Assembly (NCBI GenBank): GCA_964512925.1
Contig: CAZEKH010000001.1
Span: 39,445 to 103,444 of the forward strand
Direction of reading: 5' to 3'
DNA from: an uncultured Candidatus Saccharibacteria bacterium
GTDB taxonomy: Bacteria > Patescibacteriota > Doudnabacteria > UBA920
Length of the DNA: 64,000 bases
The notes under the pieces are model-generated. The model saw nothing but the letters and a program-made list of their open reading frames with translations, had not been told where the DNA came from and ran no database searches. This document shows positions 2,388 to 57,017 of the stretch, in pieces. A program made the translations under genes and the position numbers. How positions within the stretch are numbered: position 1 is the stretch's first letter; each line of letters opens with the position of its first letter.

Positions 2388-3278
2388 CTAAATCCAATTA
2401 CTCAAAATTTTTGCCAATTCTTTTTCTTTACCCGAAAAACTATGGTCAGCGCCTTTAAGTAAAACATAATCAAGATTGGGTCTTAAAGCTTTGAGTTTTT
2501 CCAAAGCCTCAGCTGGCGGCCCTGAAGTGAATTCGTCGTTCTCCCCATAAACCACTAGACTGGGTTTATGCAGCTTTTTAAAATGTCTAAGCAAAGGCTT
2601 TTTAGAAAGCTTGGCTTTGCCAAAAAGTTCCAAAAAAGGAAATACATTATAATCCCCGTCAGGGTTTGCGATGTCATAAAAACCCTGGTAGGAAAAAACA
2701 AATCCCTGAGACATTTCCCCTATCAACTCTTCGCCTTTGCCTTTTTTAATTTTATTTTTACTTTCTAAAAGAAGCTTCCAAAACTTGTTTTTACCCAGCA
2801 TTTGGCAGTATATACCCACGTCATCTCCCCCGCACAACAACATATATCTGGATATTGGATTTTTTGGGCGATAATAATTATACACGCATATTTTATTTGC
2901 CCCAGTGGAATGTCCTGCTAAATAAAACTTTTTATAGCCTTGGGTTTTTAAAAAACCAATTGCCGCGTCAATGTCAAAAATGCATTCCTTGATTTTTTCA
3001 TACGCCATACCGTACAATTTTTTTTCTATTTTCTTGCCTTTTTTTACTTTGATCTTCTGTATAACTCCGGCTCCGCGGTTGTTAAAAAACAAACTTGTAA
3101 CATCTTTTTTAAAAAGCTCGCCCGCATATATTCCATTTTCTTCCTGTTTGTAAAACACCGAAGAGTTACCGTTGCCGTGAAGCCAAATGCAAACCGCTCC
3201 CTTTTTCTTTGCCTCATACAAAAGCCCAGGCAAGGTTAGCCCGTCTTTGGTTTGAAATTGTACAAATTTTGGATGCAT
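2388..3278 (-). CDS. Alpha/beta hydrolase fold protein
   Basis: 296 aa. GHSTG nucleophile elbow (GXSXG), HGNGNS oxyanion-region motif, C-terminal GADHSF. Confidence 0.6.
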   Translation of the reverse strand: MHPKFVQFQTKDGLTLPGLLYEAKKKGAVCIWLHGNGNSSVFYKQEENGIYAGELFKKDVTSLFFNNRGAGVIQKIKVKKGKKIEKKLYGMAYEKIKECIFDIDAAIGFLKTQGYKKFYLAGHSTGANKICVYNYYRPKNPISRYMLLCGGDDVGIYCQMLGKNKFWKLLLESKNKIKKGKGEELIGEMSQGFVFSYQGFYDIANPDGDYNVFPFLELFGKAKLSKKPLLRHFKKLHKPSLVVYGENDEFTSGPPAEALEKLKALRPNLDYVLLKGADHSFSGKEKELAKILSNWI

Positions 3279-3289
3279 AACTATTAGTT

Positions 3290-4036
3290 TTACGGTTGAT
3301 ATCTGATGCCCAATTCCGGGTAAAATGCCTTATTGCTGATAGCAAAAACTATTAAATTCACAACATCTTTCACGTCCAAAGAATTGCTTAAATCCCGATT
3401 GTTGCCAGCTGTTTTAAACAAGAGGGTTTTTATCATACCCGGGTATATGCCCATAACCTTAACCCCGCTGCCAGCCAATTCTTCCTGCATCCCTTTGGTA
3501 AATCCAGTGATAGCCCATTTGGAAGCCTGATACACAGCTCTTTCCGCTTTGGCATAAATTCCGGCCTGAGAAATTATATTTATAACCAAACCTTGTTTTT
3601 GTTTCTTCATATATGGCAACACGAGTTTTGTTAAAAGGATAGTACCCAAAGTATTTACCTCCAAAACATCGCGGATCTTTTTGGAATCATTATCTTCCAA
3701 CTTCCCTTGGATCCAAAGCCCAGCGTTGTTTATAAGCACATCTATTTTCTTAAACTTTTTCAAAGTTTGGATAATCACTTTTTTTAGCTGCTCTTCTTTA
3801 GTCACATCGCCAGGTAAAATCAAAAACTGTTCTTTCTTAAAGTCTTTCAAAAGTTCTGTTTCCAGGGCTTTGCATTTTTTTATATCCGGCGCAAAACCAC
3901 AAACCAAAAACCCCTGGGATAACAGTTCTTTTAAAGTCTCTTTTCCAATCCCGCTAGTTACCCCGCTGATCAAGACAACTTTGGTTTTTTCTTTTGTTTG
4001 CATAGAATTTAAATGTATTAAAATTAGTTCAATCAA
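3290..4036 (-). CDS. SDR family NAD(P)-dependent oxidoreductase
   Basis: VVLISGVTSGIGKE (TGxxxGxG) cofactor motif and YQASK (YxxxK) catalytic motif. Confidence 0.8.
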   Translation of the reverse strand: MIELILIHLNSMQTKEKTKVVLISGVTSGIGKETLKELLSQGFLVCGFAPDIKKCKALETELLKDFKKEQFLILPGDVTKEEQLKKVIIQTLKKFKKIDVLINNAGLWIQGKLEDNDSKKIRDVLEVNTLGTILLTKLVLPYMKKQKQGLVINIISQAGIYAKAERAVYQASKWAITGFTKGMQEELAGSGVKVMGIYPGMIKTLLFKTAGNNRDLSNSLDVKDVVNLIVFAISNKAFYPELGIRYQP

Positions 4037-4953: not shown

Positions 4954-5044
4954 TGGCGGAGAGGGAGGGATTCGAACCCTCGAGCCCCTTGCGGAGCAAC
5001 CGGTTTTCGAGACCAGCGCACTAGACCACTATGCGACCTCTCCA
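4954..5044 (-). tRNA. tRNA-Ser (anticodon CGA), long variable arm
   Basis: Reverse complement GGAGAGGTCGCATAGTGGTCTAGTGCGCTGGTCTCGAAAACCGG...GGGTTCGAATCCCTCCCTCTCCGCCA. Anticodon loop CTCGAAA. Long extra arm. CCA encoded. Confidence 0.8.
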
Positions 5045-5244
5045 TACTTTTATTTACAAATAGATTCCCGCTTTCGCGGGAATGACAGCAAGTAAATATA
5101 TTATAAACAAAAACCCGATGCTTGTCAGCTGTTTTTCAAAACAAAAATTTAAAAAGATTCCTGTCAACTATGACACAATTGTGTTACGTTTGACAGGAAG
5201 CTTTTTATAAAAAATTATTTAGTCTGCCACATTAAAAACAAAAG

Positions 5245-9994: not shown

Positions 9995-10795
9995 TTACAA
10001 AGGAGAGGATAAAAATTCCTTTAAAGTCTTTACAAACTCCTCTGGTTGGTCTAAGAAACTAAAATGCCCTGAGTTCTGAAGAATTTTGAATTTTGAATTT
10101 TGAATTAAGGAATGCATTTTTTCACCAAACTCAACCGGGGTGTCTTTGTCGTTCTCACCCCAAACCAACAGTGTAGGAATTTTTATTTGTTTTAAGTCCT
10201 CGGTTAAATCTTCCTGTGTTACATTTATAAAAGTTTCCCGAAGTTCCGGCGTTGCCAAATAGTCTTCTGCTCCAATCGTCTTATAAATACTCTTCCGTAA
10301 ACCCTGCATAAATTTTGGTTTAAAAACAGGTCTTGCTATTTTTGCAACAAAACCATAAACACTTTTTTTTGATCCACTCACAGCAAATCCCGCTGCATCT
10401 ACCAAAACCAGTTTTGTCAGCCTTCCGCGTAATTCCGCGTTACCTTCTGCATAAGTCCGCGTTGTTTTAATAGCCACTCTCCCCCCAAAACTATGCCCCA
10501 CCAACACAACATTTTTAAGTTCTAACTTTTCTAAAAAACCTTTTACTAATTCTGCATAATCCCCCACTGTCCAAGAAGTCTTTGGCGCAGGCGAACCACC
10601 AAATCCAGGAAGGTCAACAGTGTAACAACTGATTTGCTGATTGACTGATGCACTGATTAACACACTAGCTATCCGAGCCCACACTTCTTTATTGCTCCTC
10701 CAGCCATGCAAAAACACAACAGACACTTCACTATCCCCTGTTCCAAATTGTTTATATGATAATAAATTTTTTTCCACCACAATTTGCTGATTCAT
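9995..10795 (-). CDS. Alpha/beta hydrolase
   Basis: VVLVGHSFGGRVA nucleophile elbow, FLHGW oxyanion region. 266 aa. Contains in-frame period-8 and period-7 DNA repeats. Confidence 0.7.
   Translation of the reverse strand: MNQQIVVEKNLLSYKQFGTGDSEVSVVFLHGWRSNKEVWARIASVLISASVNQQISCYTVDLPGFGGSPAPKTSWTVGDYAELVKGFLEKLELKNVVLVGHSFGGRVAIKTTRTYAEGNAELRGRLTKLVLVDAAGFAVSGSKKSVYGFVAKIARPVFKPKFMQGLRKSIYKTIGAEDYLATPELRETFINVTQEDLTEDLKQIKIPTLLVWGENDKDTPVEFGEKMHSLIQNSKFKILQNSGHFSFLDQPEEFVKTLKEFLSSPL
10629..10658. repeat. Period-8 CTGATT-based repeat inside the alpha/beta hydrolase gene
   Basis: ctgatttgctgattgactgatgcactgatt. Encodes SASVNQQIS. Confidence 0.5.
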
Positions 10796-10832
10796 ACTTA
10801 TATATTAACATTCATTGAGAAATCATTAAACC

Positions 10833-10873
10833 CCAACAAAAACACATAACATTATGTTATGTGTTTTTGTTGG
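10833..10873 (-). terminator. Long perfect hairpin terminator abutting the 3' end of tRNA-Pro
   Basis: CCAACAAAAACACATAAC-ATTAT-GTTATGTGTTTTTGTTGG. Confidence 0.55.
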
Positions 10874-10945
10874 TCGGGATGCTGGGAATTGAACCCAGTC
10901 TACACGCACCCGAAGCGTGCGTACGACCGGCATACTCCATCCCGA
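10874..10945 (-). tRNA. tRNA-Pro (anticodon CGG)
   Basis: Reverse complement CGGGATGGAGTATGCCGGTCGTACGCACGCTTCGGGTGCGTG...GGGTTCAATTCCCAGCATCCCGA. Anticodon loop TTCGGGT. Confidence 0.7.
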
Positions 10946-10984
10946 TAGAGAATATTATAACCAAATTTGCCAAATAAATACAGG

Positions 10985-11212
10985 CTAACTATTTGGATAG
11001 CGCCTAAAATCATTTATAAACCTCTCCATCTGCCGGTTTATATATATTAGCCTTTCCTCTATCCGATACTCCAAAGCCCGCTCCTCCTGTTCGCTTTCCG
11101 GTATGTTGTCATAATAATCATTTACAATATCTGTAAACTCATTACGAATCCCCTGCAGCCTCTCCCGCCGTTCGCGATGCCGACGGGTGGCAGCTTGCTC
11201 GTCAAATGCCAT
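10985..11212 (-). CDS. Hypothetical small charged protein
   Basis: 75 aa ORF, Arg/Glu-rich, no recognisable domain. Confidence 0.3.
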   Translation of the reverse strand: MAFDEQAATRRHRERRERLQGIRNEFTDIVNDYYDNIPESEQEERALEYRIEERLIYINRQMERFINDFRRYPNS

Positions 11213-11245
11213 AAAAAAAATTTAATATTTTAAATATTATACACC

Positions 11246-11281
11246 AAAAACACGCTCCGATGTAAAATCGGAGCGTGTTTT
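11246..11281 (-). terminator. Hairpin terminator immediately 3' of tRNA-Ala(GGC)
   Basis: AAAAACACGCTCCGAT-GTAAAA-ATCGGAGCGTGTTTTT. Confidence 0.55.
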
Positions 11282-11357
11282 TGGTGGACCATACCGGATT
11301 TGAACCGGTCGCCTCTTCCATGCCATGGAAGCGCTCTACCAAATGAGCTAATGGCCC
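11282..11357 (-). tRNA. tRNA-Ala (anticodon GGC)
   Basis: Reverse complement GGGCCATTAGCTCATTTGGTAGAGCGCTTCCATGGCATGGAAG...GGTTCAAATCCGGTATGGTCCACCA. G3:U70 Ala identity pair. CCA encoded. Confidence 0.85.
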
Positions 11358-11396
11358 AGTTTTGTTATTACGATTGTTATTATTTTAGTATTCATT

Positions 11397-11648
11397 CTAC
11401 CTGGCTTTTTTTATTTCGTCTAGTGTTTGCTGCCAGCTTTTTGCCTGCTCCCGAAACGCGGGAATCACGCCAATAGTATTTAAAACCCATCCCAATAATA
11501 TAAGCCCTAAAGCTACACCAACTATGCTTCCAAGCCCTTGCATCATCCCCCGCACAAAAGCCCGCCACCAGCTCTCGGTTTTATGAAAAATTCCAAGTAG
11601 ATGTTGATCTAATTTTTCTAACTGATTTTTTAATTCGGGATCAAGCAT
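11397..11648 (-). CDS. Small membrane protein (hypothetical)
   Basis: 83 aa with one hydrophobic helix (GLGSIVGVALGLILLGWVL). Confidence 0.4.
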   Translation of the reverse strand: MLDPELKNQLEKLDQHLLGIFHKTESWWRAFVRGMMQGLGSIVGVALGLILLGWVLNTIGVIPAFREQAKSWQQTLDEIKKAR

Positions 11649-11808
11649 AAAAATATATTGAAAATGAATTTTTTACATTATATCAAACTTTTAAAACTGT
11701 TTCTAAATTTTTCTTCTTTTTTTCAACAAAAAATCCTACACAGATATTTAATTAAATAACTGTAACCAGTCTTCTGCTTTGAAAAATCACAAGAAATAAC
11801 AAAATTCT

Positions 11809-11883
11809 TGGTGACCTCGGCTGGAATCGAACCAACATCAATAGCTTAGGACGCTACTGCTCTATCCATTGAGCTACGAGGCC
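11809..11883 (-). tRNA. tRNA-Arg (anticodon CCT)
   Basis: Reverse complement GGCCTCGTAGCTCAATGGATAGAGCAGTAGCGTCCTAAGCTAT...GGTTCGATTCCAGCCGAGGTCACCA. Anticodon loop GTCCTAA. Confidence 0.75.
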
Positions 11884-12062
11884 ATAACTAAGATTTGTCT
11901 TATTTGATTTAAATATTTCAAATAAATGCATAAAATCAAGTAGAAAAAGTATATCAGAAAAATCAGTATGTTAAAATGCCTATGATGATACTTTGAATTT
12001 TGTTTTTGAAAGCTTCAACATTTGGCAGTAAACCTAAATGAATATGAAAAGAATTAATATTT

Positions 12063-13415
12063 ATGATTTACAACACATTTATTAAAAAAGTTAAATATCA
12101 GCACATCTTTTTGCAAGCTGGAATTTTTTTATTGATTCTCAGCATATTTTTTTCTGTAAGAAAAGTGTTTGAATTACCAGAATCATACATATTTGGTCAA
12201 TTTTCTGATTTTACGACTATTTCCTTATATTTAAGCGATATTATTGGTATATCTTTAATATGTTTACTTTTTTATCTTAAATATAAGAAAAAAATTGAAT
12301 ATCGGATGTCCGATATTTATATATTATTAATTTTCTGGCTTATTTCAAAGCTTTTATTATTTCCTTTAAAAGCAAGCTACATATCAATCTTTTTCACTAT
12401 AAAGCTAATATTTCTGCTATTTGTTGCATATGGAACAGATATTATCTTTACCCATTTAAGAACAATAAAAGTTAAGATATCCCCTATATTTATAAGGATT
12501 TTTTTAATTCTTACCTCATTCCAAGCATTTTTAGCGATTCTCCAGCACATTCAGCAAAAATCCCTTGGCTTGTACCAATTAGGGGAGTCACATATTGGAC
12601 CAAATATTTTAGGGACGGCAAAAGTAGTTTCAAATGACATATTGACAATTCGGAGTTACGGGACATTTCCACATCCCAATGTTTTGTCAGTTTTTCTCGT
12701 TTTTGGCTTAGGAATTTCTATCTATTTGTTACTTGAAGCCAATTCGCTAAGGTTAAAGATTTTATACTCTTTACTTATCATACTAAACACAATCGGTTTA
12801 ACCTTATCTTTCTCCAGAGCAGGATATTTGGCTTATTTACTATTTATTTCGTTCTTTACAATTGTACTTGTTTATAAAAAATATAAAGTTTCCAAATTTT
12901 TCCTTCTGGTTTTGCCCATAATCCTATTTTCAGTAATTCTTTCATATTCAATTTTTAAAAATGAAATCACTCCTCGCTCTGTTACTAAAGATCCGGCCTT
13001 CAGCGAAAGAGTCTTTTTAAACAAAATCGGCTTAAATATGATTAAAAACAACTGGTTTTTAGGAGTTGGAGCAGGGGAGTCAGTGCTTCATATGGAACAC
13101 TACTCAGATACCCCCCTCAAACTTTGGCAAAAGCAACCAATACATAACTATTTTCTACTTTCTTCATCAGAGCTTGGACTCCCTGGATTGATTCTTTTTC
13201 TTTTTATCTTCGCCAACAGTCTGATTGGATTAATAAAAAAACTATATATTTGTTTTTCATCTTACTACTTACTACTTACTGCTTTGTTACTTGTCATACT
13301 GTTTTTAATGCAATTTGACCATTATTTCTACACTTTAAACCAACCACAGTTACTTTTGTGGATGTTTTTAGGACTAGTTTCATCTGAAACAAAAAAATCC
13401 CCAGTAGGGGATTAG
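12063..13415 (+). CDS. O-antigen ligase family (Wzy_C) polytopic membrane protein
   Basis: 450 aa, about 10 TM segments, LSFSRAGYLAYLLF motif typical of the Wzy_C/WaaL family. Confidence 0.7.
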   Translation: MIYNTFIKKVKYQHIFLQAGIFLLILSIFFSVRKVFELPESYIFGQFSDFTTISLYLSDIIGISLICLLFYLKYKKKIEYRMSDIYILLIFWLISKLLLFPLKASYISIFFTIKLIFLLFVAYGTDIIFTHLRTIKVKISPIFIRIFLILTSFQAFLAILQHIQQKSLGLYQLGESHIGPNILGTAKVVSNDILTIRSYGTFPHPNVLSVFLVFGLGISIYLLLEANSLRLKILYSLLIILNTIGLTLSFSRAGYLAYLLFISFFTIVLVYKKYKVSKFFLLVLPIILFSVILSYSIFKNEITPRSVTKDPAFSERVFLNKIGLNMIKNNWFLGVGAGESVLHMEHYSDTPLKLWQKQPIHNYFLLSSSELGLPGLILFLFIFANSLIGLIKKLYICFSSYYLLLTALLLVILFLMQFDHYFYTLNQPQLLLWMFLGLVSSETKKSPVGD

Positions 13416-20413: not shown

Positions 20414-20540
20414 ACCCGCCTCCTGTTAACTTATTTGAAGTGTCATTTTTTTGGTTATAAATGACTTTAAAGAATATTGTATTGCTAAAACAATGTAAAT
20501 ATTGTATTATACAAGTGTCAGAAAATATTACACTTTTTAT

Positions 20541-21275
20541 ATGAATAAGGAATTATTAGAAAATTTGGGCTTAACTAAAATAGAAAGCCAAATTTATTTA
20601 GCTTCCATAGAACTAGGGGAGTCGCTCCATAAACAGTTGGCTGAAAAAGCCGGGATTAAACGTCCCACACTCTATGAAAATCTGCCAACACTTTTTAAAA
20701 AAGGTTTAATCTCTAAAACCGTTAAGGGGAAAAGAATTCTCTTAGTTGCCGAAGACCCTCAAAAATTTTATGAAGCCAAAAAATCCCAATTAGAAATATT
20801 TCAAAATCAAATTCCGCTGCTACAAGCTTTAATGCTTACAGCAAAATCTAAACCAAAAATTTCAATTTATGAAGGCATAGAAGGAATAAAAAAAATTTAT
20901 AAAGATCACATTGAGCAAGCTCAATCCATATTAGAAATAGTGGGTATAGAAAAAATCCATCCCGAAATTGCCAAATACATTAAAAAAGATTATGTCTGGG
21001 CTAGGGTAAGAAAAAAGATAAGTTTAAAAATGTTAATCAGCGGGCCCACAGTAGCTGGAATATTTAAAATGGAATCTGACCCCTTTGAGCTGCGCGAAGT
21101 TAAAAATATTGACGGCAAAAACTTCCCCATCCCTTTAGGTTTAAACATTTATGGCAATAACATCTCATTTGCGGTCTATCGCGAAGACAGCGAGCCGATT
21201 GGTTTGATCGTCCGAAGCAAAGAAATAGCCACCACCCTTAAGTCGCTGTTTAATTTCATTTGGGACAACGTCTAA
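20541..21275 (+). CDS. TrmB-family transcriptional regulator
   Basis: N-terminal wHTH LGLTKIESQIYLASIELGESLHKQLAEKAGIKRPTLYENLPTLFKKGLI. Upstream ATTGTATT direct/inverted repeats. Confidence 0.75.
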   Translation: MNKELLENLGLTKIESQIYLASIELGESLHKQLAEKAGIKRPTLYENLPTLFKKGLISKTVKGKRILLVAEDPQKFYEAKKSQLEIFQNQIPLLQALMLTAKSKPKISIYEGIEGIKKIYKDHIEQAQSILEIVGIEKIHPEIAKYIKKDYVWARVRKKISLKMLISGPTVAGIFKMESDPFELREVKNIDGKNFPIPLGLNIYGNNISFAVYREDSEPIGLIVRSKEIATTLKSLFNFIWDNV

Positions 21276-21350
21276 ACAAAATACTCGTCACAATACTGTA
21301 AAAGATTTTGGATCATATGCAATAGATGTAGAGTAAGATTTCTCATTTGC

Positions 21351-21507
21351 TGTCATCCCGGAATTTTTAAGGGCAGTTAAAAATATCCAGCCTGCCTGAA
21401 TGATTCAGTCAGGCGGGGATCCAGGGGTTAATCTTATATTCTATGTTTAAATATATAATCCTGGATCCCGGCTCTCTCCGCCTGCTGGCGGATCGGCCGG
21501 GATGACA
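21351..21507. repeat. Family-B composite palindromic element (MITE-like) with 11-bp terminal inverted repeats TGTCATCCCGG / CCGGGATGACA
   Basis: Nested inverted repeats: GGGGATCCAGGGG versus CCTGGATCCCGG, and GCCTGCCTGAATGATTCAGTCAGGCGG. Related copies at 31635-31712, 35257-35318, 44169-44198. Confidence 0.55.
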
Positions 21508-21667
21508 TAAAAACAGATAAACCTGTATTAAATTTTTTGCTCTCATTAAATTGAGCATAATCCAGATTTTTATGATCCATATTTTTTGCCTTGATTTTAT
21601 TGCAAAAATATAGTAAAGTTAATTGGTTAATTCAATTTATTTAATAATTTCTCCCACCTCCCCCTTA

Positions 21668-21688
21668 CCCCTCCTCGGGCAGGAGGGG
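21668..21688 (+). promoter_or_regulatory. Family-A SD-containing hairpin CCCCTCCTCGGGCAGGAGGGG in the infB leader
   Basis: The 3' arm AGGAGGGGAGG ends about 10 nt before the infB ATG at 21700. The 5' arm CCUCC is identical to the 16S anti-SD core. Confidence 0.55.
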
Positions 21689-21699
21689 AGGTGTCAAAA

Positions 21700-23628
21700 A
21701 TGGATTTATCTTCTTTGTCTTCCCAACTGAATATCTCCATCCAGGACTTGCGCTTAAAAGCTAAAGCGAAAGGTTTTGTCATATCCCCAAGAGCCAACAA
21801 GATAGACAACAGTTTGGCAAAACAGATTGCCGAAGCTTTGGCCCCGAAACCCATATCCCAGCCTGACGCTCCTAAAATCCCAAAGCTGGTTAAACTTCCT
21901 TCTTTCATAAAAGTCCGCGACTTTGCCGTAGCTTTAAACCTGCCGGTTGTAGAAGTAATAAAAACCCTGATCAAAAACGGCGTGATGGCAACTATCAACG
22001 AAGAAGTAGATTTTGAAACCGCCAGCATTGTGGCTTCTGACTTAGGTTTTGAAGTGGAAACCAAAGCCGACCAAACCCTGGCGGATTTTGGCGCGGGTTT
22101 TTTGCACGAAGTGGTTAAAGCGGAAAAAGAAGAAAATTTAAAACTAAGAGCTCCGATAGTCGCCATTATGGGACACGTTGACCACGGAAAGACCACACTC
22201 TTAGATACAATCCGCAAAACCAAGGTGGCAGAAGGGGAATCTGGCGGCATCACCCAGCATATCGGCGCCTACCGCGTAAAAAAAGACGGAAAATTCATCA
22301 CTTTTTTAGACACCCCGGGACACGAAGCATTTTCTGAAATGCGCGCCAGGGGAGCGAATGTGACTGACATTATTGTTTTAGTCGTCGCCGCAGACGACGG
22401 TGTAAAACCGCAAACTTTGGAAGTTATCAAGCGCGCGCAATTTGCAGGCACGCCGATGATAGTGGCTATAAACAAAATAGACAAACCGGAAGCCAATATA
22501 ATCCGCATCAAACAAGAGCTGGCCGGACAAAATGTTTTAACCGAAGAATGGGGCGGTAAAACCATTGCCTGTGAAATTTCCGCCAAACAAGGAACCGGTA
22601 TAGACAATTTGTTAGAAATGATTTTACTGACAGCTGAGGTGGAAAATTTGCGCTCAAACCCCCAGGGTAAAACTGTCGGGACTATCATTGAAGGACGGAT
22701 GAGTCACGGTAAGGGTCCAACTGCAACTGTCATAATTCAAAATGGAACTTTAAAAATAGGCGATGTTGTTGTGGCAGGCGCGGCTTTTGGCCGGGTCCGT
22801 TCTTTGGAAGACGAACACGGGAAAAAACTCAAAGAAGCCGGCCCGTCTGTGGCAGCGCAAATCTCCGGACTTTCCGACGTTCCGCAGGCCGGAGATATTT
22901 TGCAGGCGCCGCAAACTTTGGACGAAGCCAAACAAATTGCTTTAAACGCATTAAGAAAACTCAAGAGCCACAAACTTTCAGCCAAAAGCTCGCTCATCGG
23001 GGATACTTCCACCAAAACTCTTAATCTGGTTATCAAAGCGGATGTTGCGGGGTCTTTGGAAGCGATCAACGGCTCCATTGCCAAGCTAAAAAATGACGAA
23101 GTTAAAATCAATATTATTTCCGACGGCATCGGCGAGGTCAATGAAACAGATGTTTTGTCTGCAGCCAATGCCAAAGCCGCTGTCATAGCTTTCCGCGTCA
23201 AAGTAAACTCCAAAGCCGAAAGCCTGGCTAAACAAAAACAAGTTGTAGTGGACTTTTACGACGTGATATACGAACTGGTGGAAAATATTACTTCTGCGGT
23301 TATCAAACTCTTTACTCCGGAAACAGAAAAAATTTCCCACGGTAAGGCCAAAATCCTGGCAGTATTTTTGACGGAAAAAAACAATATGATCGTGGGCGGC
23401 AGAGTAGAAGAAGGGGAGTTAAAAAAGATCGGACACATCGCCATTTGGAGGGATGGGGTGGAAATAGGCAAAGCTGACATAACTGAGCTGCAGCAAAACA
23501 AACAAACCACCAAAGCCGTCCTGGCTGGCAGCGAGTTTGGCGTCAAACTCAAAACCCAAACCAAAATCAAAGAAGGCGATGTACTGGAAAGTTATGAAGA
23601 AAAGATTAAGATTAAAACATTAAATTAG
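21700..23628 (+). CDS. infB: Translation initiation factor IF-2
   Basis: G-domain [27 protein letters not shown]. Start could alternatively be GTG at 21691. Confidence 0.95.
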
Positions 23629-27125: not shown

Positions 27126-27924
27126 ATGGATCAGTTTGAAGCAAGATCAAAGGTGATCGTGGCGCTTGATGTAGCTTCTGTTAGCGAAGCAATCAAGCTC
27201 GTGCAAATGTGGATGGTTCATGTGGGCGGATTCAAGGTGGGTCTTGAACTCATCTATAGTACCATCATGTCGCTCATTACGCTCACACCCAGTGTGGCGG
27301 AAAACCTGCTCAGCGAACTACGTAGGCTGTTTCACCTGCTCGGCAACAGCGAATTTTTGGACGTCAAGCTCGGCGATATCGGCAATACTGTAGGTGGCGC
27401 GTCAAACGCCATCTGCCGGCTATACCCGGCAATGTTCAACGTCCACGTTTCGGCCGGCTCGCCCGCTCAGGGCAGCGCGTCAAAGCATCGACACAATGAC
27501 GAAAACATTCAACTTACAACGGAAACCCCTACTTCTGGGGGTCACATTGCTCACAAGCCTTGGGGAAAGTGAGCTTGTTGAACTGGGTTTGAAAAACCAG
27601 GAAGACACAGAGCCCAGGCGTCTTGAGATCGTTGTACGATGGGCAAAGTTTGCACAGCAGAACGGCTGCGACGGCGTGATTGCGTCTCCTCTTGAAGTTG
27701 TCGCTATCCGCCAAGCCTGCGGGCCAGACTTCTTGATATTTACGCCCGGCGTTAGGCTACCTGGCTCACAAATCCATGACCAGAAAAATGTTGCGACCCC
27801 CGGGCAAGCAATTCTATGGGGAGCAAGCGGAGTTGTGGTTGGCCGGGACATCACCGGCGCCAAAGACCCGGTCGCGGCAGCAAAGCTGGTCGTTCAAAAT
27901 ATTCTGGAAATACACGGAAGGTAA
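27126..27924 (+). pseudogene. pyrF: Orotidine-5'-phosphate decarboxylase split by an apparent frameshift near 27450-27470
   Basis: Frame A (27126-27572) gives KVIVALDV...DVKLGDIGNTV...NVHVSAGS. Frame B (27394-27924) continues PLRAARQSI...LLLGVTLLTS...LIFTPGVR...VVVGRDIT. Both are needed for a complete OMP decarboxylase. Local GC about 55%. Confidence 0.7.
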
Positions 27925-27926
27925 AA

Positions 27927-28628
27927 ATGCAAGTCCCATCAGGAAGAATTTTCACCGCTGATGATTTGATCATCTTGCGGGCAATGGTGTCGATTGGGTT
28001 CGTTCAACACAGAGAACAACCATTCACGCTCAAATCTGGTATCCAGTCTAACGTCTACGTCTTCGGAAGGGAAGAGATGACCGACAATCCCGTCATGGAG
28101 GTGATGGTGGGGGAAAAGATTGGCAGGCTCATCAGTCAGGTGGCAGTTCCTGAAGATCGAGAGATCTGTTTGATCGGTATTCCAACCGCCGGCACGCCGT
28201 TCGCCCAGGCAACAGCCATGGCCTGCTGTAACAAACTCTTCGTGAATGACAGGCCAATCGTTCACCGCCAGATGAAAGAGGTTACAAAACAGCACGGTGC
28301 ACACCCCGGATGGATTGTTGGTCGCCCGCGTGAAGACCAGAGCTATTGGCTGGTAGACAATGTCGCCACCAACGGCGCATCCAAACCAGAGGCTCGGGAA
28401 AAAATGCGCGCTGACCACTACCCGGATCCGGCCGGAGTAATTATCTGGATTGACCGCCAGCAAGGGGCAGTCGAACTTCTCAAGCGTGAAGGATTTGATC
28501 GAGTTTTGGTTGCATATAACCTGCTCGACATCACCTACGCGTTCGGGGAAATGCAGCTGTGGCCAAAAACGGCCGTCGACGCCGTGCAAAAAGAAATCGA
28601 AGATCACTCGTTTTTACCAAACGCGTGA
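27927..28628 (+). CDS. pyrE: Orotate phosphoribosyltransferase-like type I PRTase
   Basis: FTLKSGIQSNVYVF, LIGIPTAGTPFAQATA and the PRPP-binding loop YWLVDNVATNGASK. GGAAGG RBS, start 2 nt after the pyrF stop. The track ORF starts earlier at 27816, inside pyrF. Confidence 0.6.
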   Translation: MQVPSGRIFTADDLIILRAMVSIGFVQHREQPFTLKSGIQSNVYVFGREEMTDNPVMEVMVGEKIGRLISQVAVPEDREICLIGIPTAGTPFAQATAMACCNKLFVNDRPIVHRQMKEVTKQHGAHPGWIVGRPREDQSYWLVDNVATNGASKPEAREKMRADHYPDPAGVIIWIDRQQGAVELLKREGFDRVLVAYNLLDITYAFGEMQLWPKTAVDAVQKEIEDHSFLPNA

Positions 28629-31526: not shown

Positions 31527-31601
31527 GGCGCGATGGTGAAGCAGTAACACTGCGGTCTGCAAAACCGCCACGCGTGGGTGCAAATCCCACTCGCGCCTCC
31601 A
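31527..31601 (+). tRNA. tRNA-Cys (anticodon GCA)
   Basis: GGCGCGATGGTGAAGCAGTAACACTGCGGTCTGCAAAACCGCCACGCGTGGGTGCAAATCCCACTCGCGCCTCCA. Discriminator U73. Confidence 0.85.
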
Positions 31602-31628
31602 ATAAATAAGAGTCTCAACGAGGTTTAA

Positions 31629-31732
31629 GGTCTGTCATCCCTTCGGGAGATCCCCCGTAAGGGGGACAAAACCGCCACGCGTGGGTGCCATCCCTCCGGG
31701 AGATGTAAACACAAATCCCACTCGCGCCTCCA
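31629..31732 (+). pseudogene. Partial tRNA-Cys 3' duplicate interrupted by two family-B-related hairpin insertions
   Basis: GGTCTG [TCATCCCTTCGGGAGATCCCCCGTAAGGGGGAC] AAAACCGCCACGCGTGGGTGC [CATCCCTCCGGGAGATGTAAACAC] AAATCCCACTCGCGCCTCCA. Outside the brackets it is identical to nt 33-75 of the intact tRNA-Cys. Confidence 0.55.
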
Positions 31733-31807
31733 CTGCTTCGTCCGCCTAGGGCGGACTACGCAGTGCAAGCAAAAAAATCTTTAACATTATAAAAACATTA
31801 CATACCT

Positions 31808-35256: not shown

Positions 35257-35318
35257 TGTCATCCCGGCCTTGCTTGCCCGCCGTAGCCTTGGCGAAGGTG
35301 GAAGCCGGGATCCGGGGT
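35257..35318. repeat. Family-B element (TGTCATCCCGGCC ... GGAAGCCGGGATCCGGGG) in the rpsA 5' leader
   Basis: Shares the GTCATCCCGG / CCGGGATCC arms with 21351-21507. Confidence 0.5.
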
Positions 35319-40104: not shown

Positions 40105-40154
40105 ATAAAAATATGGCGGGTACGCTGAGCGTACCATTCACCACGCTAAGCGTG
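40105..40154 (-). repeat. Second copy of the two-hairpin tRNA trailer (3' of tRNA-Ile)
   Basis: Reverse complement of ACCACGCTTAGCGTGGTGAATGGTACGCTCAGCGTACCCGCCATAT. Confidence 0.6.
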
Positions 40155-40228
40155 GTGGGCGTGCCTGGACTCGAACCAGGGACCCCGAAGGTATAAGCTT
40201 CGTGCTCTAACCAGCTGAGCTACACGCC
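40152..40228 (-). tRNA. tRNA-Ile (anticodon TAT, AUA-reading)
   Basis: Reverse complement GGGCGTGTAGCTCAGCTGGTTAGAGCACGAAGCTTATACCTTCGGGGTCCCTGGTTCGAGTCCAGGCACGCCCACCA. Anticodon loop CTTATAC. Confidence 0.75.
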
Positions 40229-40348
40229 CGTGTAACTAAGGAGTATTATAGAAAAAATTCACCAATGAAGCAATAGGTCTATTTTGCAAAAAATTTAAAA
40301 GGGTGTATATTTTAGGAAAGTTCTTGTCTTTCCTTTTAGGAGGCTTCG

Positions 40349-43982: not shown

Positions 43983-44735
43983 ATGCTTTACGTTGTTGCA
44001 ACACCAATTGGAAATTTGGGGGATATAACCCTCCGCGCAATCGAGGTTTTAAAGTCTTGCGATTTTGTGATTGCGGAAAACCCAGGGTACTCACGGAGGC
44101 TTTTAGAATATATAGATGGGTTACCATTAAATTCCAATATTATAAAAACGCTGACTGAGGATATTTACCCTGGATCCCGGATCGAGTCCGGGATGACAGC
44201 TAAAATTAGCCGCAAAGAAGTTTGTCAATTTGCGGAACATAACGAACAACAGGTAGTCAAAGAACTTTCCAGAAGGCTGATAAAAGAAACCGCCTGCCTT
44301 ATAACTGACGCCGGGACTCCGGGCGTTTCTGACCCAGGCTTTAGGCTGGTAAGAGAGTGCGTTGCGCAAGGTGTTGAAGTATTACCTATCCCAGGAGCCA
44401 ATGCCGCCGTTGCCGCGCTTTCTGCAAGTGGACTTCCAACTGACAAATTTATGTTTTTAGGTTTCCTTCAAAAAACAGCGGCTAAAACCGTGTCCGCCCT
44501 ACAGTCTGCAGAAAGCGCGGAAGCCACGGCGATTTTCTATGAATCCCCGGAAAGAATTATAAAAACCCTAAGCTACATCTCCAACGCTTTTCCAAACAGC
44601 CGGGTGGTTGTGGCCAGGGAACTTACCAAGCTCCACGAAGAATTTTTACGCGGAAACCCGGACGAGGTCATCCAGATGCTTAAAGAAAAGCCTTCAATAA
44701 AAGGCGAGCTGACCGTATTAATTTCATTTAAATAA
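43983..44735 (+). CDS. rsmI: 16S rRNA (cytidine1402-2'-O)-methyltransferase RsmI with an internal approximately 30-aa insertion
   Basis: MLYVVATPIGNLGDITLRAIEVL and ITDAGTPGVSDPG match RsmI. The insertion spans the family-B palindrome at 44169-44198. Confidence 0.85.
   Translation: MLYVVATPIGNLGDITLRAIEVLKSCDFVIAENPGYSRRLLEYIDGLPLNSNIIKTLTEDIYPGSRIESGMTAKISRKEVCQFAEHNEQQVVKELSRRLIKETACLITDAGTPGVSDPGFRLVRECVAQGVEVLPIPGANAAVAALSASGLPTDKFMFLGFLQKTAAKTVSALQSAESAEATAIFYESPERIIKTLSYISNAFPNSRVVVARELTKLHEEFLRGNPDEVIQMLKEKPSIKGELTVLISFK
44169..44198. repeat. Family-B palindrome CCTGGATCCCGGATCGAGTCCGGGATGACA inside the rsmI coding sequence, in frame
   Basis: Encodes PGSRIESGMT. Arms are identical to the terminal repeats of the 21351-21507 element. 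Confidence 0.55.
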
Positions 44736-52154: not shown

Positions 52155-52186
52155 AACCCTTCAGCTGCTGAAGGGTTTTTTTATAA
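52154..52186. terminator. Bidirectional terminator AAACCCTTCAGC-TGC-TGAAGGGTTT
   Basis: Perfect 11-bp stem between convergent genes. Confidence 0.6.
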
Positions 52187-52654
52187 CCTTGATTTGATAA
52201 CAATTTGCCTATAAGGCTCCTCACCCCAACTTTCACTGGACAGTTCGGGAAAATTTTCCTGGATGTAGGAATGCACAAATCTCCTGTCAAAAGCCGGCAT
52301 TGTTTCAAGTCTGACTGCGCGACCGGTCTTTTTGATATGCAGAGCGGCTTCTTTGACTGTTTCTTTTAAGAACCATTCCCGCTTAATATTATAATCATCA
52401 ACATCCAAAGAAAATCTGGGCGTCTGGGCAAATCCCAATTTCTTAAACGCAAGACTCTGGATGATGCTTTGGAGAGCTTTTAAAACCACTCCGTGTTGCC
52501 CGATAAGTAAAAAAGAATCAGGGGTGGAAATATTGAAAACCAATCCCCGGTTTATGCTTTCCTCAAACTCTACCTTTGGCGCAGAGATTTTCATTTTTTC
52601 TAAAACCTCAAGTACCAAATTCTTTATCTGTTCAATTTTGTCGTAATCAGTCAT
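52181..52654 (-). CDS. Jag/KhpB RNA-binding protein (KH + R3H)
   Basis: 157 aa. Position downstream of yidC. R3H-like C-terminus (RRFVHSYIQE). Confidence 0.75.
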   Translation of the reverse strand: MTDYDKIEQIKNLVLEVLEKMKISAPKVEFEESINRGLVFNISTPDSFLLIGQHGVVLKALQSIIQSLAFKKLGFAQTPRFSLDVDDYNIKREWFLKETVKEAALHIKKTGRAVRLETMPAFDRRFVHSYIQENFPELSSESWGEEPYRQIVIKSRL

Positions 52655-52667
52655 AAAATTTAAACTG

Positions 52668-53369
52668 CTATTTTTTTAAAACATAATATTGCTGACCTAT
52701 GGAGAAAACCGTGGTGGCAACCCAATACAATAAAAGTCCGCTGGGAATTTTAAACTGCCAAGCCGCAAAAATTGTCATCAAGGGCATCATATACAACATA
52801 TTTTTATTTAGGGAGGCGCTGAAATCTTCCCCGGAAGGAGAGGGGGCCTGGTTTTTGGGCATCATCATTTTTGATTGCACAAACTGCAAGCCGGCAGCCA
52901 ATAAAGCCAAGACAATGCTGGTTTCCGCCAAATTTAAAAAGCCAAATGAAATTTGATGAACATTTTCCGGCCTGTGGACAAAACTGTAAAGTCCAGATAA
53001 ATTGCTTTGCAATCCGTTGCTAAAAACCTGGTATAGCCCTATAAAGACGGGTAATTGTATAAACAAAGGCAGACAAGAAGACAGGGGATTCACTCCGTGT
53101 TCTTTATATAAATCCATCATTGCCTTGGCTTGCTGCTCTTTGTTATTTTTATGCTTTTCCCTCAATTCAGTCAGTTTTGGCTGTAGGTTAGCCATCGCCT
53201 TTTGGCTTTTGAGCGATTTTTGGAAACTGGGAGCCATAGCAAGCCGGATTAAAAAAGTAATCACAATAATTGCCAGGCCCAGATCCTGTCCTGGAATCCA
53301 GTTGTAGAAAAAAATTAAAACATTTAAAAGCGGCCTGTAAACTATTTCGTTGTAAATTGTCGAAAACAT
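52668..53369 (-). CDS. yidC: Membrane protein insertase YidC (short Oxa1-like form)
   Basis: 233 aa, five TM segments. Conserved LAIIVITFLIRLAMAP and C-terminal basic tail. Confidence 0.85.
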   Translation of the reverse strand: MFSTIYNEIVYRPLLNVLIFFYNWIPGQDLGLAIIVITFLIRLAMAPSFQKSLKSQKAMANLQPKLTELREKHKNNKEQQAKAMMDLYKEHGVNPLSSCLPLFIQLPVFIGLYQVFSNGLQSNLSGLYSFVHRPENVHQISFGFLNLAETSIVLALLAAGLQFVQSKMMMPKNQAPSPSGEDFSASLNKNMLYMMPLMTIFAAWQFKIPSGLLLYWVATTVFSIGQQYYVLKK

Positions 53370-53382
53370 ATTTTATATAAGA

Positions 53383-53613
53383 TTAAATTTTGTCTACTCG
53401 CGGGGTGGAAAAAGGGTTGCACCTAAGAATGCGCTTAACTGCCATATAAAGACCCTTCACGGCCCCGTATTTCTCTATTGCCTGTTTTGAATATTCGCTG
53501 CAGCTGGGATAAAAACGGCAAAAACCAGATGGGTACAATGCCCGAAAAAAACCATGGTCGGGCGAAAGAAATTTCTGATATAACTTAATAAAAAATATTA
53601 ACAAATTTCTCAT
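53383..53613 (-). CDS. yidD: Membrane protein insertion efficiency factor YidD
   Basis: FLSPDHGFFRALYPSGFCRFYPSCSEY signature. Confidence 0.85.
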   Translation of the reverse strand: MRNLLIFFIKLYQKFLSPDHGFFRALYPSGFCRFYPSCSEYSKQAIEKYGAVKGLYMAVKRILRCNPFSTPRVDKI

Positions 53614-53614
53614 A

Positions 53615-53953
53615 TTAGTCCTTAATCATGCGGTTTTTTCTTAAAAGGGAATCCAGAGAGGCTAACAAAAGTTTTTCGTCCAGGTTTCTTTTGGGTTTAA
53701 TAAAAACCATATAATTGCCAGGAAAAATTTTGGTCAATCTTTTTTTTAAATATTCGCGCAAGATTCTTTTTAAGCGATTTCTTTTTGTTGCCAGCTTACT
53801 TACTTTTGTGGACACAACTATGGTAAAAGAAGGATAATCTTTAGAATCTTTATGGTATTTCACGCTAAAATCCGGGTTAAAAAAATTCCGCCCGGCTCGC
53901 AAAACAAGCTGAATATTCTTGCTTCCTGCCAAACGGTTTTTTTTATTGAACAT
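53615..53953 (-). CDS. rnpA: Ribonuclease P protein component
   Basis: RNR motif region KRNRLKRILRE. 112 aa. Downstream of rpmH. Confidence 0.85.
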   Translation of the reverse strand: MFNKKNRLAGSKNIQLVLRAGRNFFNPDFSVKYHKDSKDYPSFTIVVSTKVSKLATKRNRLKRILREYLKKRLTKIFPGNYMVFIKPKRNLDEKLLLASLDSLLRKNRMIKD

Positions 53954-53962
53954 AGAATGTAT

Positions 53963-54097
53963 TTAGATGGCGAGTTTTTTTCTTCCCTTAGCTCTCCGCT
54001 TGGCCAAAACAGCGCGTCCGCTTTTTGTTGACATACGGTTTAAAAACCCGTGCCTAACTTTTCTTCTTTTTTTCTTTGGCTGATATGTCCGTTTCAT
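53963..54097 (-). CDS. rpmH: 50S ribosomal protein L34
   Basis: [44 protein letters not shown] (44 aa). Not in the ORF track because it is under 60 aa. Confidence 0.9.
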
Positions 54098-54099
54098 AT

Positions 54100-54356
54100 T
54101 TTTTTAATATTTTGCTAATTAACAATTATTTATCTGCCTGCTAATTATACTCAAGTTATATCTTTTAGTCAATGTTTAGGTATTTTAAACCCGCATAACA
54201 ATCTTGTCAGCCTGACTTCACAGCCTATCCACAGCATATCAACAAGACCAATAAATTTTCTCATTATTATGCGAAAAAATTTTATTTTACATGTTGATAA
54301 CCCCCAGCTAAAATATTTAAAGTATTTAATGTATAAAAATAAAATCAAAAAGATTT
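54100..54356. promoter_or_regulatory. Candidate oriC / dnaA promoter region (DnaA-box-like CTATCCACA)
   Basis: AT-rich spacer between divergent rpmH and dnaA containing CCTATCCACAGC. A further AT-rich region with TTTTCCACT / TTATCAACA lies between dnaA and dnaN (55701-55873). Confidence 0.4.
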
Positions 54357-55700
54357 ATGACAAACCAGCAACTGTGGCAAGCAATTTTGGGAAGCCTGGA
54401 AATTTCCTTAAGCAAAGCAAATTTTAATACCTGGTTTAAAAATACTTCAATTATTGAAAAATTGAGCGATACGATAGTAATAGGCGTGCCAAGCACCTTT
54501 AACAGGGATTGGATAGCTGCCAAATACCACGCTGAAATGCTGAAAAGCTTAAAAAGCATTGCCCCGGAAATAAAAGAGATAAAATATCAATTAAATTCCC
54601 AAACCGCCAGAATCCAAAACACGCCGCAAAAAACAGCTGATGCGAACTCTTTACAAAAAAGGCCTTTAGAACAGCAGATTTTTTTCAACCTTAACCCCAA
54701 ATACACGTTTGAGACTTTCATTTTGGGGAAAAACAGCGAATTGGCTTATGCCGCCAGCCAAGCTGTGGCAAAAAATCCAGGCGGGCAATACAATCCGCTT
54801 TTCATTTATGGGGGAGTGGGTTTGGGCAAAACCCATTTGATGCACGCGGTTGGTCATAGCCTTTTAAGCTTGAAGCCGAATGCTAAGATTATATATGTAA
54901 CCTCGGAAAAATTTACCAACGACTACATCAATTCCATCGGGCAGAAAAAAATTGAGGATTTTAAAAAAAATTATCGCAGCGCAGACTGTTTAATGGTAGA
55001 CGATATTCAGTTTTTGGCTGGTAAAGAAGGTACCCAGGAAGAATTTTTTCACACCTTTAACGAGCTGAGGGATAACGGCAAACAAATTATCATCACCTCT
55101 GACAGACCTCCAAAAGAAATTCCCGCCATTGAGGAGCGGTTGGTTTCGCGTTTTGAGTGGGGAATGCTGGCTGATATTCAAGCTCCCGACTTGGAGACAA
55201 GGATGGCCATCCTAAGAATGAAAATGCAAAAACGCAACATCTCAATTTCAGAAGATGTCCTTTTTTACATAGCGGAAAACGTTCAAAACAATGTCAGGGA
55301 ACTGGAAGGCGCTTTAAACCGCCTGGCGGTCTATCAACAAATGGAAAACCGAGGGCTGATTTTAGAGCAAGCAAAAAGCATCTTGGCTAGCGTTATTGGG
55401 GCAAAGAAAAAAATCACCTCGCCCAAAAGAATAGCTGAAATTGTCGCTGATTTTTATAACATCACAACCGAAGACCTGATAAAACAATCCAGAAAAAAAG
55501 AATTTGTCAAACCAAGACAAATTGCAATGTATCTGATCCGTAAAGAACTAGATAGTTCATTTCCTTCAATTGGGGCGTTTTTTGGGGGACGGGATCATAC
55601 AACAGTTATGCATGGGGTAGAAAAAATCACCGGTCAAATTAAAGCGAAGGTTGAGTTTAAACAAGAGGTGGATTTAATTGAGGATAAACTGTTTAACTAA
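54357..55700 (+). CDS. dnaA: Chromosomal replication initiator DnaA
   Basis: Walker A GGVGLGKTHLMHAVGH. Box VII. C-terminal DNA-binding helix. Confidence 0.95.
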   Translation: MTNQQLWQAILGSLEISLSKANFNTWFKNTSIIEKLSDTIVIGVPSTFNRDWIAAKYHAEMLKSLKSIAPEIKEIKYQLNSQTARIQNTPQKTADANSLQKRPLEQQIFFNLNPKYTFETFILGKNSELAYAASQAVAKNPGGQYNPLFIYGGVGLGKTHLMHAVGHSLLSLKPNAKIIYVTSEKFTNDYINSIGQKKIEDFKKNYRSADCLMVDDIQFLAGKEGTQEEFFHTFNELRDNGKQIIITSDRPPKEIPAIEERLVSRFEWGMLADIQAPDLETRMAILRMKMQKRNISISEDVLFYIAENVQNNVRELEGALNRLAVYQQMENRGLILEQAKSILASVIGAKKKITSPKRIAEIVADFYNITTEDLIKQSRKKEFVKPRQIAMYLIRKELDSSFPSIGAFFGGRDHTTVMHGVEKITGQIKAKVEFKQEVDLIEDKLFN

Positions 55701-55873
55701 TGTGTGTAACTCTTTTAAATTTCTTGGGCGGTGTTTATTGGAACGGATAAAAAAATCTTTTCCTTTTTTAATCCACCAAAAAAATATTTGTTTTTATTTC
55801 ATCGCCCAATAAAAATCAGGTTAAAAAATCTTTTCCACTTATCAACAATACTTATTATTATTAATTAATATTT

Positions 55874-56974: not shown

Positions 56975-57017
56975 TTTGGAGGTGTGTATTCAATTTACTA
57001 AAAAAGAAAATTTACAT

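Follow-up and report, generated by a model that had tools for sequence, protein, structure and literature searches.

A head-to-head dimer of TGTC-tagged hairpins, very probably of the CGTC type of REP, in a Patescibacteria chromosome

The 64-kb stretch of DNA analysed here (64,000 nucleotides of contig CAZEKH010000001.1, referred to as the window) carries a palindrome of 157 bp at 21351-21507, between a TrmB-like gene and infB. A first reading made without database searches, which we call the sequence-only reading, described it as similar to a transposable element of the miniature inverted-repeat class (MITE) with 11-bp terminal inverted repeats (TIRs), and the locus raises the question of what kind of element this is and whether it moves. 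We conclude that it is very probably a head-to-head (HH) dimer of two TGTC-tagged hairpins of the CGTC-tagged superfamily of repetitive extragenic palindromes (REPs), present in a Doudnabacteria-like chromosome of the Patescibacteria and, we infer, spreading as non-autonomous selfish DNA. The kind of element is a known one; the host phylum is new, and the loops are nested and unusually large. With regard to the host, the closest homologues of the RsmI and TrmB-like proteins of the window are labelled Candidatus Doudnabacteria or Patescibacteria.

A dimer of tagged hairpins

The sequence of the palindrome is as it was first described. The 11-mer TGTCATCCCGG at 21351-21361 and CCGGGATGACA at 21497-21507 are perfect reverse complements, and the outer inverted repeat continues imperfectly into the flanks (21 nt, 81% complementary). 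The further inverted repeats said to be nested inside are also there, GCGGGGATCCAGG with CCTGGATCCCGGC (13 nt, 92%) and CCAGCCTGCCTGAAT with ATTCAGTCAGGCGGG (15 nt, 87%). With up to one mismatch TGTCATCCCGG is found four times in the window (21351+, 21497-, 35257+ and 44188-), where dinucleotide shuffles give an expectation of 0.45 +/- 0.59 and four or more were seen in 0 of 100 shuffles. Folding, which had been proposed as a check, gives a structure much more stable than that of shuffled sequences for either strand: for a 165-nt stretch with the element, compared with dinucleotide shuffles, z is -7.2 for RNA of the plus strand, -9.3 for RNA of the minus strand and -7.6 for DNA. The whole element is predicted to form a single multibranched hairpin closed by the 11-bp outer stem. 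The equal folding of both strands indicates a palindrome at the level of DNA.

The basic unit is a TGTC-tagged hairpin and not the 157-bp composite. Each unit has an unpaired TGTC tag, an 8-bp stem starting with AT (ATCCCGGN), a loop, a return stem of the form N'CCGGGAT and a CC(A/G)G tail. The 157-bp element consists of two such units, U1 and U2, with their tags outward and tails inward and the spacer between them; the coordinates of these and of the other units of the window are given in Table 1. TGTC precedes the stem in U1, U2, U3, U4 and the units at 5061 and 31633, and the tail is CCAG in U1, U2 and U4, CCGG in U3 and CTAT in the 5061 unit. Four units of the window have TGTC followed by ATCCCGG.. 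and CC(A/G), and one has the ATTCCCGC-GAAA form.

Table 1. Tagged hairpin units of the window and the parts of the 157-bp composite
Feature	Position	Strand	Composition or basis
Composite, very probably an HH dimer of two TGTC-tagged REP hairpins	21351-21507		Repeats, folds, and alignment with the same composite in contigs of 36-70% GC
U1, left unit	21351-21427	+	TGTC, arm ATCCCGG, inner hairpin GGAATTTTTAA-GGGCAG-TTAAAAATATCC, return arm (C)GGGGAT, tail CCAGGGG
Nested 27-nt hairpin in U1, AGCCTGCCTGAATGATTCAGTCAGGCG	21389-21415	+	Clean insertion between ATATCC and GGGATCC
Spacer between U1 and U2	21428-21459		32 nt, AT-rich; apical part of the central stem
U2, right unit	21460-21507	-	TGTC, stem ATCCCGGC, 23-nt loop, return stem GCCGGGAT, tail CCAGG; fold z = -4.8
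U3, single unit	35257-35317	+	TGTC ATCCCGGC, 35-nt structured loop, GCCGGGAT, CCGGGG
U4, single unit in rsmI	44169-44198	-	TGTC ATCCCGGA CTCGA TCCGGGAT CCAGG; 8-bp stem, 5-nt loop, canonical or minimal form
Single unit with 4-nt loop	5061-5087	-	TGTC ATTCCCGC GAAA GCGGGAAT; fold z = -3.6
Diverged TGTC-tagged hairpin	31633-31655	+	TGTC ATCCC TTCG GGAGAT CCCC; z = -1.1, not significant alone

The units differ mostly in what lies between the arms. U4 and the 5061 unit have simple short loops, of 5 nt (CTCGA) and 4 nt (GAAA) respectively. The loops of U2 and U3 are hairpins themselves, that of U2 containing CCGCC-AGCA-GGCGG. In the case of U1 the inner stem (GGAATTTTTAA...TTAAAAATATCC) is long and AT-rich, and the stem is interrupted by the nested hairpin, with ATCCC and GGGAT remaining contiguous. 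Only the window copy has this 27-nt hairpin, all other aligned composites having a gap there, and neither the nested hairpin nor the spacer has a further copy in the window or in the set of loci searched for them. However nesting of one hairpin in another is not unique to the window copy, as in locus L013 (2567-2609) the loop of one TGTCATCCCGG...CCGGGATCC unit holds a second, whole unit in reverse orientation (TCCCGGATCAAGTACGGGATGA). The reverse complement of a unit loop (GGATCGAGTCC) is similar to the T-arm of tRNA (GGTTCGAGTCC), which is taken as a resemblance only.

Shorter relatives of the element had been reported in the rpsA leader, in rsmI and in a partial copy of tRNA-Cys. The first two are U3, which sits 42 nt upstream of the rpsA ATG (35215, minus strand), and U4, which is in frame in rsmI (ORF 43983-44735) and encodes PGSRIESGMT; both have the two arms exactly, TGTCATCCCGG...CCGGGATCC. 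The third stands only as a diverged relative: it forms the 5' edge of the partial tRNA-Cys duplicate, and only TGTCATCCC and GATCC, around a TTCG loop, are in common. The 5061 unit is of a sister stem type, lies 18 nt upstream of tRNA-Ser (4954-5043, minus strand) and had been missed.

Relation to known REPs and MITEs

Di Nocera, De Gregorio and Rocco (2013, BMC Genomics 14:522; PMC3733652) divided the prokaryotic REPs into GTAG-tagged and CGTC-tagged superfamilies. In the latter (families CGTC-1 to CGTC-4) the tag is often TGTC or CCTC, the stems are of 8-9 bp and almost invariably start with AT, the loops are of 4-5 nt with noted exceptions, and there is a CCA tail. The CGTC REPs are mostly in HH dimers with spacers mostly of 20-100 bp, heterodimers are frequent, and some copies are intragenic and in frame. 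The hosts given are Proteobacteria, Chlorobi, Bacteroidetes, Spirochaetes and Thermotogae. The same study reports no tyrosine transposase gene flanked by CGTC units, and leaves the mode of mobilisation open.

The window units share with this superfamily the TGTC tag, the 8-bp stem starting with AT, the CCA tail, the HH dimer with a 32-nt spacer, the in-frame copy and the lack of an associated transposase. The stems compared with the rule were ATCCCGGC/GCCGGGAT of U2 and U3, ATCCCGGA/TCCGGGAT of U4 and ATTCCCGC/GCGGGAAT of the 5061 unit, and in the case of U4 and the 5061 unit the published dimensions are matched with the loop included. The window differs in having a Patescibacteria host, a low density of copies (5 units in 64 kb) and the extra nested 27-nt hairpin of its dimer. 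We found no description of REPs in Patescibacteria in the searchable literature, and a 2025 survey of REPs has no mention of this phylum. The palindrome first described as MITE-like is re-filed under a known REP family, and the family is extended to the candidate phyla radiation.

Members of the superfamily include dRS3 of Neisseria and the Rickettsia palindromic elements (RPEs) RPE-4 and RPE-6, which are CGTC-type REPs according to PMC3733652. Unlike the units discussed here, those families are of high copy number and specific to a genus. In-frame insertion into genes for proteins is a known property of RPEs, and U4 shows the same in rsmI. The stem sequences of those families differ, being ATTGCGAGG in Rickettsia and ATTCCCGC in Neisseria.

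With regard to the GTAG REPs, the REPINs and their REP-associated tyrosine transposases (RAYTs) described by Bertels and Rainey (2011, PMC3116915) and Nunvar et al. (2010, PMC2817692), there is a likeness in that an inverted REP doublet makes one foldable unit, with a tetranucleotide tag beside the hairpin, no target-site duplication and a patchy distribution among relatives. However the tag here is TGTC/CGTC and not GTAG, no GTAG adjoins the stems, and no RAYT gene flanked by these units is present in the 64-kb window.

The MITE interpretation does not survive the dissection into units. A classical MITE would be a deletion derivative of an insertion sequence (IS), moved by a DDE transposase with target duplication, and the perfect 11-bp TIRs, the length of 157 bp, the lack of coding capacity and the related copies all fit such an element. 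However the supposed TIR is the tag plus the outer stem arm of each of two independent units that are also found singly (U3, U4 and 5061-5087), and dimer partners in other genomes are often of other stem types (ATTGCGGG, ATGCCGGG, ATTCCGGC and ATACCGGGG), so there is no fixed TIR. The search for target-site duplications that had been proposed found none at the window copy (flanks ...CATTTGC and TAAAAAC...), none of 5 nt or more in 75 dimers, and duplications of 2-4 nt at a level near chance. There was no IS with these ends among the 207 loci examined, and no transposase in the window or beside the units. A MITE origin is therefore most improbable. Bacterial MITEs such as the Correia elements and QMITE1/2 of Coxiella (PMC5896051) are also small, non-coding, terminally inverted and repeated, and sometimes lie over ORFs, but they have target-site duplications and are generally held to come from ISs, whereas the window element is modular and built of independent hairpin units. 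The element is closer to the REP/REPIN type than to transposase-derived MITEs.

Related units in other genomes and in close relatives

A scan of species-representative genomes with the exact pattern TGTCATCCCGG-N7-37-CCGGGATCC gave at least 120 loci. The hosts among the matches listed include Alpha-, Beta- and Gammaproteobacteria, Rickettsia, Coxiellaceae, Saccharibacteria, Daviesbacteria, Uhrbacteria, Chloroflexota, Chlorobium, Omnitrophota, Nitrospira and others, a Rickettsia endosymbiont and Rickettsiaceae metagenome-assembled genomes (MAGs; L023 and L045) being among them. The informative features are those that lie outside the search pattern, and they were taken from the 132 units of the matches listed. 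GGATCC is followed by A in 126 of these units, which gives the CCA tail. An inverted partner is on the tail side (HH) for 54 of the 132 and on the tag side (TT) for 9, and the spacers of the 54 dimers have a median length of 33 nt. Among the 66 listed units whose interior is 7 nt long, nearly all have complementary bases at the two ends of that interior (A..T, G..C or C..G), as judged by eye and not counted.

Some copies are similar to those of the window well beyond the arms. A Saccharibacteria-labelled MAG (L048) has two dimers with a left unit 97% identical to U1 over 38 nt (3276-3313), an alphaproteobacterial contig (L091, 5065-5120) has 88% identity with U3 over 58 nt, and the 5061 unit has an exact match of 29 nt in a Spirochaetota MAG (L093). 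A U1-type pattern of 26 fixed bases was found in 43 metagenome contigs with GC contents from 33 to 70%. The aligned copies share one composite, with TGTCATCCCGGAATTTT...AAAATATCCGGGA(T/C)CCAG on the left, a variable spacer, and C(T/C)GG(A/G)TCCCGGCTCTC...TCGGCCGGGATGACA on the right, and the AT-rich inner stem is retained even in the aligned copies of 67-70% GC. The apical stems of U1-type copies vary yet still pair in 32 of 37 distinct sequences, as against 17% of shuffles, which is covariation. The inner arms, GGGACCCAG/CTGGGTCCC in high-GC and GGGATCCAG/CTGGATCCC in low-GC copies, were also considered as proof of pairing between units, but this was dropped as the presence of the same variant in both halves explains them equally.

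Units of the general type are also on 37 viral contigs of IMG/VR, and a blastn search of a plasmid collection with the 157 bp gave no match. On one of the viral contigs (3300012942_000394, locus L173, 2550-5350) the gene for a major capsid protein of phages (Pfam Phage_capsid, E = 1e-91) lies between two inverted TGTC units, and it follows that true phage genomes carry these hairpins.

Six syntenic relatives were recovered, and all three of the window sites are without copies in syntenic relatives when loci with and without copies are compared, as had been suggested. In L125, with a TrmB protein 88% identical, the TrmB-infB spacer is of 334 bp and has no element. In L126 and L127 purF, for amidophosphoribosyltransferase, lies between the TrmB-like gene and infB (10736-12433 and 10736-12443 respectively). 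L123 is a locus of 20.7 kb equivalent to 33-54 kb of the window. According to the strict scan it is without units throughout, the region upstream of rpsA included, and it has an "empty" rsmI; the spacer upstream of rpsA is shorter than in the window and the alignment at that point is poor. The strict scan that gives five units in the window gives none in the approximately 80 kb of L123, L125, L126 and L127. In L208 and L209 it gives a single unit apiece. With looser matches the relatives are seen to have copies of their own at other sites, for example between infB and rbfA in L126 (14528-14594). The sequence-only reading had held that mobility would be put in doubt by a restriction to a few loci with no empty sites; as it is, the orthologous sites of relatives are without copies and the family is very widespread.

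With regard to the purF genes of these relatives, that of L126 looks frameshifted or truncated, with 316 aa called and the coding sequence running on, and purF has been lost in the window and L125. The L126 purF leader (10760-10870) is structured with a terminator-like hairpin at its end, and might be a riboswitch.

These comparisons also bear on whether the 157-bp element could be a structured RNA with a function at this locus, such as a leader, attenuator or small RNA for infB or an RNA that terminates or stabilises the TrmB-like mRNA. In favour of this are the high predicted stability of the structure and the position of the element between genes on the same (plus) strand, 76 nt past the stop codon of the TrmB-like ORF (20541-21275), which is for a regulator of the TrmB family, and 193 nt before the infB ATG (21700). 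The only promoter-like site for infB, at 21586-21614, is downstream of the element. However there is no T-run terminator after it, and Rfam gives no match for the element even at E values up to 10; at the gathering threshold only tRNAs are found, and the best hit in 21250-21720 has 21.6 bits against a threshold of 71 bits and is outside the element. The absence of the element from the L125 spacer, the presence of purF at the site in L126 and L127, the finding of the same element inside coding sequence, on phages and in other contexts that have no relation to this one, and the equal folding of the two strands are all against a role tied to this locus, for which we see only a slight chance. A separate hairpin, CCCCTCC-TCGGGCA-GGAGGGG (21648-21700), is located just before the infB start with the likely Shine-Dalgarno sequence GGAGG in its 3' arm, and may be a translational control structure for infB.

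It is in RsmI that presence and absence are seen most clearly. Among the best 120 homologues 71 have an insert of 18-100 residues and 49 have a 3-residue linker (AWP, IRG or VRD), all at one exact point. For 19 of these proteins the nearest neighbour, at 84-95% identity outside the insert, is in the opposite state, one pair at 94% being P0003 (filled) and P0056 (empty). At the DNA level the inserts in the rsmI genes of L208, L209 and L121 are complete in-frame dimers with the tags outward, and the three differ in stem type, with ATTCCGGC and ATCCCGGA in one, ATTCCCGC-GAAA and ATCCCCGA in another and ATTGC... and ATCGC... in the third. In the window (44119-44212) the right half of the rsmI insert (U4) is perfect and its left half appears decayed. 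This point of RsmI, probably at the surface of the protein, would be a hot spot for insertion in this clade of Patescibacteria. The peptides encoded by the inserts are of the forms VIPxxxPES...GSRIxSGMT, VIARxxSDEAI...IASxALAMT and TIPAKAGIQ..., and for annotation the units account for odd peptides of these kinds (VIPxxxPES..., GSRIxSGMT and VIARxxSDEAI...IASxALAMT) in Patescibacteria proteins.

It has been proposed that the families of CGTC type may be dying out for lack of a transposase (PMC3733652), and the units could on that basis be ancient and now immobile, kept or only slowly lost because of selection on the hairpin, which might for instance protect the 3' ends of mRNA or bind a protein, and with the differences between relatives due to precise deletions. 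Such a relic would be in keeping with the failure to find an enzyme in the window, in 120 loci or between unit pairs, and with the decayed left half of the window rsmI insert, where other genomes have kept both halves. The stable tetraloops (GAAA, GTAA, TTCG and GTGA) and covarying apical stems also fit structural selection. However near-identical composites with an AT-rich inner stem in hosts of 67-70% GC are hard to square with ancient vertical descent; there are copies on phage contigs, the unit sites differ in each relative, near relatives have different stem types at the same rsmI site, and one copy has a nested insertion. We regard the relic explanation as rather unlikely because of the conservation of the composite across very different GC contents, the phage copies and the turnover in rsmI.

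A number of points nevertheless weigh against spread of a CGTC-type REP as the explanation we prefer. The non-coding flanks of the relatives have about 70% column identity and are too diverged for exact empty sites to be defined, and presence and absence could stem from precise deletion of palindromes rather than insertion. Within the wide taxonomic spread, identity inside the exact search pattern is by construction. The loops of U1-U3, at 23-56 nt and with their own hairpins, are unlike the published 4-5 nt, and searches of the window, of the neighbours of units in 120 loci and of the ORFs between unit pairs gave no mobilising enzyme.

Proposed mode of spread and neighbouring features

The conclusion of the sequence-only reading that an element repeated in this way and with no coding capacity must be mobilised in trans holds. 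None of the window ORFs with 150 aa or more matches a transposase family in Pfam, and ten of them are without any match; the Pfam search covered 49 ORFs of the window. When 2,728 ORFs from 120 loci with units were clustered all against all, no gene family was seen to recur beside the units, and Pfam gave no transposase between unit pairs, the ORFs there being housekeeping or capsid genes. As no mobilising enzyme was found, the mechanism that we propose rests on analogy.

By that analogy the element would be non-autonomous selfish DNA that spreads, or until recently spread, as a single-stranded hairpin, and the hairpin together with the TGTC tag would be what a trans-acting enzyme recognises. 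Copying of this kind would resemble that of GTAG REPs and REPINs by the HUH/Y1 transposases (RAYT and IS200/IS605 types), which also act without target duplication. The exposed loops of hairpins may be favoured landing sites, which would explain the nesting, and phages or other means of transfer may carry the element between hosts. At the locus under discussion we regard the element as probably a passenger, placed in the 3' untranslated region of the TrmB-like gene and upstream of what is likely to be the infB promoter, with at most a possible secondary effect at the RNA level, such as 3'-end protection, stabilising or insulating.

A stronger proposal is that TGTC/CGTC REP dimers are currently active and spreading horizontally across phyla, with recurrent in-frame entry into a probable surface loop of RsmI. 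One and the same composite of about 100-150 bp, its AT-rich inner stem intact, is present in hosts of 33-70% GC, on phage contigs and in the streamlined Patescibacteria. We put this forward as a tentative possibility. If true it implies a conserved mobilising enzyme or a phage-borne vehicle, to be sought by co-occurrence across genomes. To our knowledge the CGTC-type REPs are the one large superfamily of REPs for which there is no known mobilising enzyme, and the composite found across base compositions, the phage-borne copies and the RsmI hot spot with its filled and empty states provide a basis for such a search. The same datasets can be used to ask whether hairpins inside proteins are tolerated or used.

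A further alternative is that the units are not themselves mobile but are recombination targets, being sites for IS110/IS1111-type elements or phages and spread by those events. dRS3 of Neisseria is a phage integration site. A link of REPs with targeting by ISs is made in the literature (PMC1525189), and a GTAG REP inside QMITE2 is the target of IS1111. In the window the partial duplicate of tRNA-Cys, which is typical of integrase activity, abuts TGTC hairpins (31615-31732). However no IS or prophage adjoins any of the window copies, and being a target leaves the multiplication of identical units unexplained; we consider this explanation improbable and retain that of a REP moved in trans.

The surroundings of the tRNA-Cys gene (31527-31601) have further features. 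An exact duplicate of the 3' 41 nt of the gene lies 30 nt past its end, except that the T-loop of the duplicate is interrupted by a hairpin of 24 nt (CATCCCTCCGGGAGATG...). In this partial copy (31615-31770) the 5' half is replaced by the TGTC-tagged hairpin and a CCCCC-GTAA-GGGGG hairpin, and next after it there is a GC hairpin, CACTGCTTCG...CTACGCAGTG. L125 has a similar partial tRNA copy plus hairpins at 20456-20680. The partial copy could be a remnant of integrase activity, or could be due to hairpins landing in a pseudo-tRNA.

The window is otherwise ordinary core chromosome, with mur/ddl, gyrA, rpsA, ruvABC, tyrS and the yidC-dnaA-dnaN-recF origin region. The genes R3H/jag, yidC, dnaA (54357-55700), dnaN and recF at 52181-58103 make up this origin region, and the cumulative GC skew has its minimum at 54-56 kb. 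ARAGORN finds a tRNA-Ile with the anticodon UAU (tat) at 40153-40229, an uncommon way for bacteria to read AUA. The ORF at 27394-27924 matches only the C-terminal part of orotidine monophosphate (OMP) decarboxylase (profile positions 95-219) and overlaps other ORFs that have no assignment. In the region of L125 corresponding to 27394-28628 of the window there are intact pyrF and pyrD genes and a LAGLIDADG ORF, and this part of the window may be a decayed pyrimidine gene cluster.

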